NCBI GenBank assembly: GCA_030295235.1
Contig: AP026144.1
Location: 806,001-870,000 of the forward strand
Reading direction: 5' to 3'
Length of the DNA stretch: 64,000 bases
From: Fistulifera solaris
Lineage: Eukaryota
Under the pieces are notes generated by a model. It was given only the letters and a program-made list of their open reading frames with translations. It ran no database searches and was not told the origin of the DNA. The position numbers and the translations under genes are program-made. This document shows, piece by piece, positions 1-6,707 of this stretch; the stretch's first letter is position 1, and every line of letters starts with the position of its first letter.

Positions 1-661
<661 letters not shown>

Positions 662-1331
662 TTATTTTTTGTGAGCGCAGTTTCGTTTTTTCGCTTCTCG
701 TGCCCAAAGATCCAAAAATGCGAAGCGTCAAACCTTCCACTTCCACGCGACGAAGAACGTCCAAGGAAAATCTGGCAAATGCGCGAAAGATTTTCGTGAC
801 ACAAAAACGCACCGTTGACGCTTCTCATTTTTGACACCACACTTCATCCTATACAATCCGAAGAGTATACACGTAGTAAGTACAGGGACGGAATGACGAC
901 ACGACGTTGAGACGAACAAAGCGAAGATCGAGCGGCCATACAAAATTCCAAATTCCGTATGCTTTGTTTTACTGTCGATAAGGTTAAGGTTGTAAGGCGA
1001 CTGGGCTCGAATCTCGACTGCGAGGTGCGAGGTTGATCGTAAAACGCCTCTCAACTCTCAATCAAAACAACATGCACCTTCAATCGCAATCGATTGGATA
1101 GGATTGTGTGTAACAATATTCACAAGAAACGTAAACGAAGAAAGTAGAAGTAGCCAGTTGTCAGAGCTGACGAGAATGTCGGCTTTCAAGAGAGCCTACA
1201 CTTTCATTACACCGTGCTTCTTGCCAGGGTAGATATTACACAATTGAGAAAAAATACGCTCATTTATATGATTTACTTCTGTGGTGCAACTAATACAATC
1301 AATGCTTTTAAGTGCGCATCATTTCGTCACT

Positions 1332-1646
1332 TTAAGGGCAACCACCACATTCGAGGCGACCCAGAATGCGGAGTGAGTTCGCAACGGCGTTGCGGATGGG
1401 GGTGTTTCTCCAGCAGCGTTCTTGAGGCTCGGAGATATAGGGAACACCGTAGTAGCAAACACGGTATTCGTCATCATTGAATCCGCAAGTGAAGCTTTCA
1501 CAGTTCTCCAAGACGACTCCCAGATCACGGGCGGGGCCGACCGCCGATAGATGCGACTTGTCTTCTTCGTTAGCGGTAACAGTGTGGCTGCTGAAGCCAA
1601 CCACAGCGAGAATCAAGGCGTAGCGGATGAAAGAGAAAGACTTCAT
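1332..1646 (-). CDS. Small secreted cysteine-rich peptide precursor, paralog 1 (104 aa)
   Basis: ATG at 1646, signal peptide MKSFSFIRYALILAVVGFSSHTVTA, RDL pro-site, 6 Cys. Mature region nearly identical to paralogs at 3181 and 4353. Confidence 0.88.
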   Translation of the reverse strand: MKSFSFIRYALILAVVGFSSHTVTANEEDKSHLSAVGPARDLGVVLENCESFTCGFNDDEYRVCYYGVPYISEPQERCWRNTPIRNAVANSLRILGRLECGGCP

Positions 1647-2014
1647 GATAATCTTTTGTAGGAGTAAAGAGACTGTGTGAGCTGGTTTCGAAACGATTTG
1701 GAAGCGCTGTAAATAATTGTCTCGAACGATAATTTGTGTCAACCTCGGTCGACGTTTTCACAGGAAAAAGACCATTGGCCGCCGGGATGACGCATTACCC
1801 AAGACGCATGACCTTGTGGGCGTAAAAAAGTTGGCGGAGTTGTTAAAAGTTGATAGTGAACGTTCTTTACTACTGTAGAATTCAGGTAGTAAAACATGCT
1901 ACTCGGAGTACGTGAAAATATACTGAAATACGAAAACCTACTCTATTGAGATGACGCAGGTTAAAGGCCCAAACAGATACATACCCAACTTACTACGTGG
2001 TACTTAGACATTAC

Positions 2015-2042
2015 ACATGAAACATGAGACATGACACATGAG
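2015..2042. repeat. Short tandem repeat of a 7-mer (ACATGAN) x4
   Basis: acatgaa acatgag acatgac acatgag. Confidence 0.6.
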
Positions 2043-2092
2043 GTACGGGGTGGCGAGACTGCAATGTGCCGCTTGCGGTTTGTATAATTCGA

Positions 2093-2267
2093 CAAATATC
2101 GATATTTGGGTTTTTGCGAACATAACAACGACATCCGCAAAATGCACCCATTCATGCGTAAAAAGCCTAAAAGCCGTCTGTCAGGCGTATGAATATCGGC
2201 AAATATCGATATTGAGAAAAATGGCTCTGCTAAAATACGCTATTATAGCGCGAATATCGATATTCGC
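2093..2267. repeat. Three perfect palindromes sharing the core AATATCGATATT
   Basis: CAAATATCGATATTTG 2093-2108; AATATCGATATT 2202-2213; GCGAATATCGATATTCGC 2250-2267. Confidence 0.8.
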
Positions 2268-3180
2268 TATCTGAGATTTGAAGGGTGTCGAACTATGACA
2301 ATTTGAGCACTGACAGCGAACCCCGAATCACGACCACGATCCACGATCCGTATCACGTGGTGAAACCTTGTAGAAAAAATGTAAAGAGGACGAAACTTGC
2401 CTTTTTGTGTAGTGTGTCGCGCTTACGGATTACTATGACGATTAGGTTCTTACTCCGTAACAGTATGGAACCTGGTCACAATAGACAACTGACGACAGGT
2501 GAGTCACGACTCCTCATGATCTTTTGAATGAGCCGACCTGGTCGGCTGCTAGAGCGCCAGCATTTGGAATGTAGCCTTAATCTTTATTAGTCGAATTGAT
2601 GATCGAAAACTTATGATGGATACGGATCACGATCAAAGATACGGATGATGGTGAAAACAAGACCCCTGTAGACTCGAGTTCAAAAGTACGCCTCAGATCT
2701 AAATCGAAACCCAGCAACTAGCCCGATTAATGAAGTCCGTCCTATGCTCCAAAGAATTTGCTGCCATTACGAGAAGTGGATAATACACTGGGGGCTTCCA
2801 TGTCTTATCTAACATTCGAATGTATCCAGCATTGATCGTCGTCGTGAAATCATCGGATCGTGTCTGCCGTCGCCCTCGTAGAGCAACGCCGAAGACGAAA
2901 CTACACGTTTACGAAAGTGCCTACGACAGTTTTAGGGAATGTGTATTGAAGTAGGTAGAGATTGCCATGTTTTTAAAGTCAACTACCACCAACAAAGCAA
3001 AAGAAATTAGAAAAATCATCCCAAGTATATGTTTCTGCAAGAACGAAACCGAAACAGGCTACCGCTATCAGGATTAACTAGAACTTTACACAACTCATCC
3101 GGCTCCAGTCCCCTCGACAGCTTTACCCTATGTTCCGTAGGCACAAATAATGTCCAACATCAATGCAGATTCCGAAGTTT

Positions 3181-3484
3181 TTAGCAGAAACCGCATTCGA
3201 GACGCCCGAGGATGCGGAGAGAGTTAAGCAACAGCGTTGCGGATAGGGGTGTTTCTCCAGCAGATTTCTTGAGGCTCCGAGATATAAGGAATACCGTAGT
3301 AGCAGACACGGTATTCGTCATCGATGAATCCGCACGACAAATAGGTTTCGCAGTTTTCTAAGACGATTCCCAAGTCGCGGGCCGGGCCGACCGCCGACAA
3401 ATGCGGCTTGTCGTCGGTGGCCGCGGTCAAGGGGCTACTGGCCATGGCAGCCAAGGCGGGGAGGATAAACGAGAACGATTTCAT
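3181..3484 (-). CDS. Small secreted cysteine-rich peptide precursor, paralog 2 (1-nt insertion at 3226-3227 creates an early stop)
   Basis: MKSFSFILPALAAMA...ARDLGIVLENC...RNAVA. Removing one base restores NSLRILGRLECGFC* ending at 3181. Confidence 0.85.
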
Positions 3485-4352
3485 GGCGTTTCTTTTGAGG
3501 CAGTAATAGCGAAGTGGGACGGGTTGTTACTTGTAGTGGATTCAGAGAAAGGAACCGGTGCAGATAATGAATATAGAAGAGGGGAGAGGAGCGAAAAAGC
3601 GATTTCCATGGAGCTGAATCTTTTCGGCTGTGATGTATGTGTGACGGTCGCATTCAACGGTAACTCCGACCCCCGCAATTTCCGTTCATCACCTCAAAAT
3701 TATTGAATATATTAGGTTTATGTGGTCAATCCACGAATCATTGAAAACTTTAGTCAATCTACTACACGACATCGACAACAGAAAGAATCTGATTGGTCAG
3801 ATCGTTTCAATTTCGGATTCCGATCAATTCCCTCGACATTTTCGCGAGAAACTCCTCATGCCATAGTAAGTCGTAAGTTGTAACATCCTTACTAGTCAGT
3901 CCTCAGTTAAAGTGATGTACTAACTATTGAGATGATGATTCATTGCGTTGTCTTACAGGCCTCCAGGTAAGCGACGAATGAGTAAGCATGCAAAGTCCAT
4001 GCTATCTCTGGAATACAGCCAATTGGCCGAGTCGTAGCGTCGTAATAAACGTGATCAAATCGAAAAATAGCAGTTCCTATCTGGTTGTTGCTAGCAAACC
4101 CTTCTTAGTCGTTAGCATCGCTTTCCAAAAGAACTCGGAACTGTGCCGATTTAAGTTAAAACATCGTCTTGGGTGTCGCCCACCCTGTAGACAAAACAAA
4201 GTGTCTATCATGTTGCCCCGCCAGCTTGTGGTCCTACTAAGTTCAAAAATAAATTAAAGTGAAATTCAGTCTCTCTACTAAAAGAAAACGATAACATCTT
4301 ACTCCATATCCATTTGGGGGGCCCCTTGTCGCTGTTTATTTAACTGGAGATT

Positions 4353-4643
4353 TTAAGGACAGAAGCCGCATTCAAGGCGACCGAGAACACGGAGAGAGTT
4401 CGCAACAGCGTTGCGAATAGGGGTGTTTCTCCAGCAGATCTCCTGAGGCTCGGAGATGAAAGGAATACCGTAGTAGCAAACGCGGTATTCATCGTCACCG
4501 AAGCTGCAGCTGAAGCTCTCGCAATTCTCCAGCACAATTCCAAGGTCACGGGCGGGGCCGACCGATGATAGATGCGGCTTGTCTTCGTTGGCTGCGGTCA
4601 TAGCGAGAATCAAAGCAGTGCTGAGGATCGTGAACGACTTCAT
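4353..4643 (-). CDS. Small secreted cysteine-rich peptide precursor, paralog 3 (96 aa)
   Basis: ATG at 4643, MKSFTILSTALILAMTAANEDKPHLSSVGPARDLG...RLECGFCP. Confidence 0.88.
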   Translation of the reverse strand: MKSFTILSTALILAMTAANEDKPHLSSVGPARDLGIVLENCESFSCSFGDDEYRVCYYGIPFISEPQEICWRNTPIRNAVANSLRVLGRLECGFCP

Positions 4644-5360
4644 GGTGTATGTTGGTTTAGGAAATAGATAGACGAGAAAGTCGGCTCGAAAAGACTGCTG
4701 CGAAGAAATTTGTGACTGCTGTGTGCGTATTCTCCGATTTCGAAAAAAAACACAATCCAACACTCCGCAGCGGTCGTAGCATTAAATGCTGAATGGATTT
4801 AATACTAAATAGGTAGTCGAGATGGACGATTTCGACGAAAAACGAGACAAAAACGATTTTTGTTGCCAAAGAAAAAGCGTTAAGACAAAAAAGCGGCGAA
4901 AACACGTTTTGTAGCTACAAACGAGGAAATTGAGAAATTGAGTCGTGAATTGACTCATTTTATTGGTGTGCGAGGTGCACGTTTCGTTGTTTCGTTATGC
5001 TTTATTGGAAATTCGATCGAATCGCCCAAAGAAACAAAGAATAATGAACAATGAATGCTCTCCATTCTCAATCTCTCCTTTCATCAGTCAGTAGCATGGT
5101 GTGTAAGATCAACAGAGAAAGATACTAAACATTAGGAACTGAAACGAAGGCTGAATCTCATGTCGGCCCACAATTTGTTTCTCAAAGCTTGATTCAAGAA
5201 AAAAAACTCACGATGAACGCTCTCCTGCCAATTCAGATCGCGCAAAACTTTTGGAACCTTATCGCCAACTTCATTCTTCAGCGGAGGCCGTAACACCCAA
5301 TCCTACTCCGAGTCCTTATTACAATCAAAATTCTGTAAAATCAACAAACGGAAAAGAACA

Positions 5361-5927: not shown

Positions 5928-6707
5928 TCATTTACATGCCTTCCGATGATAGACACGACACGCATTGTTCCCCGTCTCAATGATAACATCAGCACAGTCA
6001 CGACAATACGCAATTGTTTCCATGTTCGGGACATCATTGTACAGAGTCCGTGTTCGGGCTCCTTCCATCCCGTCTCCCCACAATTCACGTTTGAGGGAAT
6101 TCCACGTCCGAAACGCCCGTTGCACGACACGTTCAATTTGTTCGTCACGAGAAGGAACTTCCACCCACCATCGTTCGTCCCACAATTCCTGTAAGGGTGC
6201 CCATGCTGGATCACGCTCATGCAACAAATACAAGCCTTCCACGAGAATAATGCGATGGGTATTTGGATCGAAATGAATGGCGTTTGCAACGGGACGGGAT
6301 GCTTCGCGACTGTAATCTGGAAAATACATACTTTGCGTTATCGAATTATCATCTTTGGCATGTCGCAAATCTTGGACCAAAGTAGTAGTATCAAACGTAA
6401 ACGGAGCTCCCTTGCGTTTCAATCCTTCTTGGCCGTACTTTTCGACCAATAGTTCCTGCGAGTAATGATAACCATCCATGGGAATGACGAGACAACAATT
6501 CGGCTGGAAGGAATTCAAGAGAAGCGCTACTTCTCGAGCACAGGTACTTTTGCCCGATCCTGGACCTCCGGCAATGGCGACCCAATACTGTTTGGATGAT
6601 GATTCCGTATGATGATTCGCCCGTTGCCACAATTCGTGAGCCAATTGTTGCAGTGGCTGGTGTGTCTTTGTTGTTTCAGTAGGAGCTTCGTGTGCAGTTG
6701 CTGTCAT
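5928..6707 (-). CDS. YggC/Yfh7-like P-loop nucleoside/pantothenate-kinase family protein (259 aa)
   Basis: Walker A GGPGSGKST, PMDGYH, KGAPFTFD and ILVEGLYLL motifs. Confidence 0.9.
   Translation of the reverse strand: MTATAHEAPTETTKTHQPLQQLAHELWQRANHHTESSSKQYWVAIAGGPGSGKSTCAREVALLLNSFQPNCCLVIPMDGYHYSQELLVEKYGQEGLKRKGAPFTFDTTTLVQDLRHAKDDNSITQSMYFPDYSREASRPVANAIHFDPNTHRIILVEGLYLLHERDPAWAPLQELWDERWWVEVPSRDEQIERVVQRAFRTWNSLKRELWGDGMEGARTRTLYNDVPNMETIAYCRDCADVIIETGNNACRVYHRKACK

Follow-up and report, generated by a model that had tools for sequence, protein, structure and literature searches.

Overview of the locus

A tandem triplet of small genes lies on the minus strand at positions 1,332 to 4,643 of a 64,000-nucleotide stretch of the genome of the diatom Fistulifera solaris (contig AP026144.1, positions 806,001 to 870,000; hereafter the window). 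Each gene encodes the precursor of a small secreted protein, consisting of a predicted signal peptide, a conserved pro-like segment and a core with six cysteines. The triplet belongs to a rare family that is restricted to diatoms and has not been described before; its general kind, small secreted proteins rich in cysteine, is a familiar one, and its named members are all from F. solaris. We tentatively propose that these proteins are trimmed at a diatom-type RXL (Arg-x-Leu) site and act at the cell surface or wall. An earlier reading of this DNA, made from its letters alone (the sequence-only reading), had described three same-strand genes for secreted peptides, each with a signal peptide, a conserved pro-segment and six cysteines. 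The open reading frames (ORFs) were confirmed on the minus strand at the coordinates below, and all three elements are present in every gene, the signal peptides being assigned by eye. The locus thus holds genuine, intact genes that are expressed, and its interest is moderate, less than the sequence-only reading had accorded it.

1332–1646, minus strand: gene 1 coding sequence, 104 residues (P0001), intronless
1572–1646, minus strand: gene 1 predicted signal peptide, ~residues 1–25, by eye from the sequence
1521–1571, minus strand: gene 1 pro-like segment, NEEDKSHLSAVGPARDL
1335–1520, minus strand: gene 1 six-cysteine core, 62 residues; stop codon at 1332–1334
3181–3484, minus strand: gene 2 coding sequence; true product 100 residues (P0004, FisN_7Lh356)
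~3419–3484, minus strand: gene 2 predicted signal peptide
3371–3418, minus strand: gene 2 pro-like segment, TDDKPHLSAVGPARDL
3184–3370, minus strand: gene 2 core, with one surplus base in the window letters
4353–4643, minus strand: gene 3 coding sequence, 96 residues (P0002), intronless
~4590–4643, minus strand: gene 3 predicted signal peptide
4542–4589, minus strand: gene 3 pro-like segment, NEDKPHLSSVGPARDL
4356–4541, minus strand: gene 3 core; stop codon at 4353–4355

All three proteins begin with MKSF, followed by a hydrophobic stretch ending in ..TVTA, ..LTAA or ..MTAA. An acidic segment, (N/T)E/D-D-K-x-HLSxVGPARDL, then leads into the 62-residue core, whose cysteines are spaced C-x4/5-C-x9-C-x13-C-x21-C-x2-C. 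The x4/5 and x9 spacings given in the sequence-only reading match these three genes, while the family-wide range is wider (see below). The genes are clear paralogues (tblastn E-values of 1e-40 to 1e-51 between copies), and a tblastn search with family members found no fourth copy in the 64-kb window (E<0.01). When the DNA was aligned with 100-base flanks, identity was high within the coding parts and almost absent beyond them. P0001 and P0002 each have an identical NCBI entry, from a contig of 90,085 bp.

Reading frame of gene 2

In the window letters, gene 2 is interrupted by an extra base at 3226/3227, a feature that the sequence-only reading had missed. The minus strand reads GCTTAAC where the paralogues have GCGAAC, which places a TAA directly after ...NAVA and leaves an ORF of 86 residues with four cysteines. 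The frame downstream of this TAA still encodes NSLRILGRLECGFC, with a dN/dS of 0.02–0.045 against the paralogues. Contigs of four public runs (X1–X4) were aligned to positions 1200–4800, and two discrepancies were found within gene 2.

3226–3227, no strand assigned: window AA, reads one base (G, plus strand), in 4/4 runs
3323–3324, no strand assigned: window GA, reads AT, in 3/3 covering runs

The read-derived letters open the gene 2 frame and change an Ile to Asn, giving a product identical to the deposited FisN_7Lh356 (P0004). Since all four runs lack the extra base, the frameshift is an assembly error, and the candidate interpretation of gene 2 as a pseudogene was ruled out. All three genes are intact. 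The DNA-like run X1 further differs from the window by single-base insertions or deletions at 1764, 1824, 2374 and 4126, all within runs of A. The F. solaris genome was originally obtained by pyrosequencing, according to the consulted part of bioRxiv 10.1101/2021.11.10.468027. Other apparent frameshifts in this assembly should be compared with reads before any of them is labeled a pseudogene.

Transcription of the triplet

None of the four runs is recorded as RNA; the label RNA-like is given to X2–X4 because of the way their coverage is distributed and because of poly(A) ends, and contig depth is unfit for ranking expression. Coverage by the DNA-like run X1 is complete, extending over all 30 bins into which the region 1200–4800 is divided. 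X2, X3 and X4 cover 15, 14 and 13 of the 30 bins, corresponding to the three gene bodies and ~50–190 bases on each side, and their depth is zero across 1805–3014 and 3620–3982. The contigs of X2 and X3 stop at 1244 with 22–23 loose T, that is, a poly(A) tail of the minus strand located 88 bases past the gene 1 stop codon. No joints were found in the run contigs over 1200–4800, and the genes are therefore without introns. The transcripts delimited by these contigs are as follows.

1244–1769, minus strand: gene 1 transcript; 5′ untranslated region ~1647–1769, 3′ untranslated region 1244–1331, poly(A) from 1244 (X2 1244–1769, X3 1244–1764, X4 1260–1735)
3046–3566, minus strand: gene 2 transcript, outer contig limits (X2 3094–3566, X3 3046–3307, X4 3088–3524)
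4163–4695, minus strand: gene 3 transcript, outer contig limits (X2 4163–4485 and 4456–4681, X3 4260–4485 and 4456–4660, X4 4355–4695)

As coverage is limited to the gene bodies and a poly(A) tail is present at gene 1 in two runs, the three genes are transcribed, with polyadenylation seen at gene 1. Transcripts, on whose existence the sequence-only reading had staked its proposal, were thus found in three RNA-like runs. The X4 contig over 4355–4695 differs from gene 3 at 17 letters and continues into dissimilar sequence beyond 4355. It is probably the mRNA of FisN_7Hh357, the partner of gene 3 in the other subgenome (described below), so this copy also seems to be expressed.

Selection and age of the copies

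The region from HLS to the C-terminus is under strong purifying selection. By the Nei-Gojobori method, dN/dS is 0.076 between genes 1 and 2 (dS 0.83), 0.083 between genes 1 and 3 (dS 1.03) and 0.043 between genes 2 and 3 (dS 1.74). Synonymous differences are in highly significant excess over nonsynonymous ones (Fisher p of 1.7e-11, 5.2e-12 and 3.4e-17, respectively). The signal-peptide and N-terminal part is much looser, with omega between 0.41 and 0.64, and the flanks are unalignable. These values bear out two claims of the sequence-only reading, namely purifying selection on the mature region (dN/dS 0.04–0.08, far from 1; p≤1.7e-11 throughout) and divergence of the signal peptides and flanks.

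F. solaris is an allopolyploid, as described in the available part of PMC5935921. The closest named proteins are FisN_7Hh355, 7Hh356 and 7Hh357, also from F. solaris and encoded on a 376,587-bp contig. They pair one-to-one with the window genes: identity is 88% between gene 1 and 355, 92% between gene 2 and 356, and 93% between gene 3 and 357, against 70–80% between paralogues. The order 355-356-357 is the same on both subgenome contigs. A maximum-likelihood tree of 22 members over 77 columns did not resolve the F. solaris copies (12 of its 19 inner forks are open), so the orthology rests on identity and gene order. Because the partners are one-to-one and in shared order on both contigs, the triplet is older than the divergence of the parental genomes that F. 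solaris combines, and it has been maintained as three distinct genes. The copies also differ in fixed features, such as the x4 versus x5 spacing and the presence or absence of a C-terminal Pro. These comparisons indicate that the copies are old and that each is maintained by selection. The sequence-only reading had called the array dosage-amplified, a description that does not fit copies this old (dS 0.8–1.7), with fixed differences and one-to-one partners in the same order.

Family size and conserved features

Searching 5.8 billion proteins through a word index returned 11 relatives, and running HMMER in full against 1.84 billion cluster representatives returned 3 relatives and 1 chance match. 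Use of a profile yielded 20, including 6 not seen before, and cluster look-ups added 4 further entries. The family totals 24 related entries, some of which are alternative models of one gene. Members are 96–163 residues long and 45–94% identical to the window proteins; among the 24, only the F. solaris entries have an organism name on record, the others being NCBI, JGI, ENA and Logan entries. Neighboring copies also occur in other organisms, where two members share one contig in two cases: P0011 and P0013 (7,361 bp), and P0015 and P0024 (8,816 bp). No longer or fused forms were found at E≤1 among 7,997 candidates scored, which is weak evidence for a stand-alone domain. The models of P0019, P0024, P0025 and P0015 carry 17–80 surplus residues before the conserved MKSF start, most likely as over-extended gene calls.

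Two sets of candidates were rejected. P0017, a 1494-residue NACHT-LRR protein, owes its library E-value of 2.4e-8 to a sum over five alike repeats; its best pairwise stretch, 30% identical, reaches 37 bits, and the cysteines aligned there are not conserved in its other repeats. The resemblance to its RNI-type leucine-rich repeats was judged a chance match. Of 136 pattern-matching stretches from metagenomes, two passed tblastn (L001 and L002); these two are no relatives, since they lie on bacterial-looking contigs, one of them on the strand opposite to a kinase gene.

The family alignment comprises 22 members. P0017 was excluded from it as a chance match, and P0019, P0021, P0026 and P0027 because they are alternative models or lack a retrieved sequence. 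The spacing C-x3-5-C-x7-10-C-x13-C-x21-C-x2-C, together with an HLSxVGPxRxL segment, is present in 22/22 members. Within GPxRxL, the G, P, R and L are invariant, as are all six cysteines, the Y-x-G after the third cysteine, and N61, L67, R68, R72 and G76. A CGxC motif at the very end of the core is also invariant. The F. solaris cores are acidic, with a pI of 4.4–4.9 and a net charge of -2 to -4, whereas other members reach a pI of 9.15.

These properties bear on the proposal that the proteins are secreted antimicrobial or defense peptides directed against bacteria of the phycosphere or parasites. Small size, secretion, disulfide richness and tandem copies would all suit such a role, as would the basic character of some members and a predicted amphipathic, Arg-bearing helix (P0001 residues 83–94). 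However, the F. solaris copies are acidic, and defense effectors usually evolve fast and diversify, while these proteins show very low dN/dS and are as much as 94% identical across the two subgenomes. Both properties fit binding to a conserved partner better than an arms-race antimicrobial, and we regard a defensive role as improbable.

The genes have already been deposited as hypothetical proteins. The six FisN gene names do not occur in the literature searched, which included, among supplements, a single file. That file, part 1 of 28 of the PMC5935921 supplement, lacks the names and uses other gene identifiers. Literature on secreted, cysteine-rich, frustule or proteome topics in Fistulifera, or on small cysteine-rich proteins of raphid diatoms, yielded nothing on the family.

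Sequence and fold comparisons

The statement in the sequence-only reading that no family was recognized stands, as Pfam, PDB sequences and the ESM Atlas gave no credible match. In Pfam, 17 members were compared at E up to 10, a range in which the HMMER filters hide most matches above ~E 0.1. The weak rows were judged to be chance: DUF1509 came up in three members at E 0.2, and DUF5746, OATP and RM6_Med14 each came up in a single member. With a cutoff of E 10, the family profile matched no PDB sequence. In the ESM Atlas, P0001 had a best feature score of 0.78 and a TM of up to 0.44, and P0004 had no usable match among the named clusters.

Two AlphaFold2 models were computed, one from 13 full-length rows and one from 22 rows without the signal peptide, with mean pLDDT of 52.6 and 54.3. 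Both predict, at low confidence, a β-hairpin (approximately EYRVCYY and ERCWRN) that leads into a helix, PIRNAVANSLRIL. Foldseek with the second model returned 0 PDB matches at E up to 0.001, a result that is uninformative on the fold at this low pLDDT. With this low-confidence model, a VIA-align comparison to 48,161 chains stayed at noise level, the highest Z being 3.5 and the weak rows including chemokines and PH domains and no CBM14. In this structural check, which the sequence-only reading had suggested, the models are too poor to speak on the fold.

One annotation points elsewhere. UniRef labels 2/6 F. solaris members (7Lh356 and 7Hh356, of the x5 type) as "Chitin-binding type-2 domain-containing protein", a label that presumably derives from a PROSITE profile and raises the idea of a strongly divergent peritrophin-A/CBM14 domain that binds chitin in or on the wall. 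The series C-x5-C-x9-C-x13-C followed by C-W presumably resembles the middle of CBM14. The remaining four F. solaris members are labeled "uncharacterized", and Pfam CBM_14 (PF01607) matched 0/17 members and the family profile no PDB sequence, within the limits given above. Furthermore, the first CBM14 cysteine would be absent, and the helix and CxxC would be extra. The part of PMC10134812 consulted reports a chitin-synthase homologue in Fistulifera and finds that, among chitin-related Pfam families, CBM_14 is the most frequent in metatranscriptomes of diatoms. Overall, we consider a CBM14 identity distinctly unlikely.

The paired cysteines at the two ends of the core also allow a different reading, in which the protein resides in the lumen of the secretory pathway and uses Cx4C and the C-terminal CxxC as a redox or Zn/Cu site, not as disulfides. 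The Cx3-5C at the start of the core and the terminal CGxC are, we assume, similar to paired metal or redox knuckles. However, the proteins have no retention signal, thioredoxin-like and zinc-ribbon families were unmatched in the Pfam and PDB searches, and six cysteines behind a signal peptide most simply form three disulfides. Such a site is therefore highly improbable.

Secretory architecture and RXL motif

Signal peptides and cleavage sites were judged by eye, without a predictor. MKSF is followed by a hydrophobic core, with small residues at -3 and -1 of the presumed cleavage site. Inspection of the members revealed no Phe-type plastid motif, KDEL-like end or second hydrophobic stretch. The GPxRxL motif lies 12–17 residues past the predicted cleavage site in 22/22 members, within the ~30 residues in which R-x-L is expected in the RXL architecture. 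Its Arg and Leu are invariant (22/22), with the residue between them being D in 12, E in 8, Q in 1 and K in 1.

A short stretch that follows the signal peptide and ends in RXL is typical of diatom biosilica-associated proteins, as described in the available part of PMC5525289. N-terminal RXL sites are sites of propeptide cleavage, known in silaffins, silacidins, cingulins and frustulins, the last of which are cysteine-rich and listed among the RXL proteins (PMC5647440, consulted in part). A silaffin-like or cingulin-like identity was rejected for the present family, as the core contains only 0–2 Lys and 2–5 Ser per 59–67 residues in 22/22 members. Its one distinctive feature is a diatom RXL pro-segment placed on a putatively globular, non-silaffin core.

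Functional implications

Based on these features, our preferred, though tentative, interpretation is a secreted protein that is trimmed at a diatom-type RXL site and acts at the cell surface or wall. The N-terminal signal peptide would direct import into the endoplasmic reticulum (ER) and be cut after ..A-x-A. The six invariant cysteines would form three disulfides in a core that may consist of a β-hairpin, an amphipathic helix and a C-terminal CxxC, as suggested by the poor models. By analogy with other diatom proteins, the acidic segment of 12–17 residues ending in GPxRxL would be removed at RXL late in the secretory pathway. The responsible protease would be the same, still-unknown enzyme that trims silaffins, cingulins, frustulins and silicanin. 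The product of 60–67 residues would then be released to the cell surface or wall, where it could bind a conserved partner in the organic wall (possibly chitin) or the frustule. The very low dN/dS and the 45–94% identity across the members found fit binding to an unchanging partner. Transcription in what seem to be ordinary cultures and the very low dN/dS together suit a conserved ligand, or else a protein with a wall or housekeeping role, better than an arms-race antimicrobial.

Several points weigh against this interpretation. The proteins are known from genes and transcript-like contigs alone, nothing links them to silica or any wall polymer, and the signal-peptide and cleavage-site assignments were made by eye. 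Conservation extends over the whole VGPxRxLG block, which could therefore belong to the folded protein instead of a cleaved propeptide, and a lone RXL tripeptide is short enough that it may occur by chance. The low Lys (0–2) and Ser (2–5 of 59–67) content of the core is unlike that of silaffins and cingulins. With mean pLDDT of 52.6 and 54.3, the predicted fold and disulfide pairing are guesses.

The same architecture is consistent with a secreted signaling peptide (autocrine, paracrine or mating-related), in which the RXL cut would free a disulfide-locked ligand of ~62 residues for a conserved receptor. The combination of a signal, a pro-segment and a small cysteine-rich product is that of a prepro-peptide. 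The extreme conservation of the mature part next to a looser signal region is as expected of a receptor-matched ligand, and several distinct paralogues have been retained in both subgenomes. However, no receptor or response is known, and Pfam RALF was unmatched by any of 17 members. Furthermore, each of the three RNA-like runs contains transcripts, and these runs apparently represent ordinary cultures, not mating or co-culture. Signaling therefore seems a possibility, although on the unlikely side.

A bolder variant, which we hold to be rather unlikely, combines elements of both interpretations. The family would represent a new diatom extracellular fold with an RXL-removed propeptide, serving either as a conserved cell-cell peptide signal or as a new binder of chitin or another wall polymer, and its three specialized isoforms would have been retained from a time before the parental genomes of F. 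solaris diverged. If true, it would be the first globular, non-silica-forming client of diatom RXL processing.

To our knowledge, few diatom secreted proteins outside the silica-forming ones have been characterized, and we know of no gene-encoded diatom peptide signal. The RXL motif, strong conservation, transcription in culture and a transformable, editable host make this a tractable system; CRISPR/Cas9 editing in F. solaris is the subject of PMC13276009. The family may serve as a handle on the RXL protease pathway beyond silica and on the use of small disulfide-rich surface proteins by raphid diatoms. The gain would be modest if it is merely another lineage-specific wall protein.

Spacer and neighboring sequence

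The spacer between genes 1 and 2 contains a 12-base palindrome, AATATCGATATT, three times within 170 bases (2095–2106, 2202–2213 and 2253–2264). It is found nowhere else in the 64 kb, where 0.01 occurrences are expected by chance, and 0/100 shuffles reached three. In X1, depth rises to 63 in the bin 2168–2288, compared to 14–19, which suggests that the palindrome region is a repeated element.

Two neighboring features were noted.

290–601, minus strand: exon 1 of a gene for glyceraldehyde-3-phosphate dehydrogenase (matches Gp_dh_N of Pfam at E 2e-25), unrelated to the triplet
5928–6707, minus strand: ORF of 259 residues with a P-loop (..IAGGPGSGKST..), unmatched in Pfam at a cutoff of E 0.001

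The remainder of the dehydrogenase gene appears to run toward the window start past an intron. The P-loop ORF is presumably similar to nucleotide kinases of the uridine-kinase/phosphoribulokinase type.

Comparison with known systems

The closest architectural counterparts are the diatom RXL biosilica proteins (silaffins, cingulins, silacidins, frustulins, silicanin-1 and SAPs), which share with the present family a signal peptide followed by a short R-x-L stretch. Both groups are diatom-restricted, and frustulins are likewise cysteine-rich. However, the present family lacks a Lys/Ser-rich, Asn/Gln-rich or repetitive silica-forming region, has no transmembrane helix and is not similar to any Pfam family, and any association with silica is putative. 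The CEGDCD-type motif of frustulins is absent from the family sequences.

Plant RALF peptides and ciliate six-cysteine pheromones are prepro-peptides of like architecture, sharing the signal peptide, pro-segment, cleavage motif and small, conserved disulfide-rich product. RALF peptides differ in having a dibasic RRXL site in place of the single Arg of GPxRxL, and no sequence relation to them was seen, Pfam RALF being unmatched in the 17 members. CBM14 is likewise a small six-cysteine extracellular module, although the C-terminal helix and CxxC of the present family fall outside it. Oomycete elicitins and PcF-type proteins have the same size, a signal peptide and six cysteines, while no Pfam match to them was found in the 17 members. 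The family further differs from elicitins in its cysteine spacing and predicted β-plus-α content.

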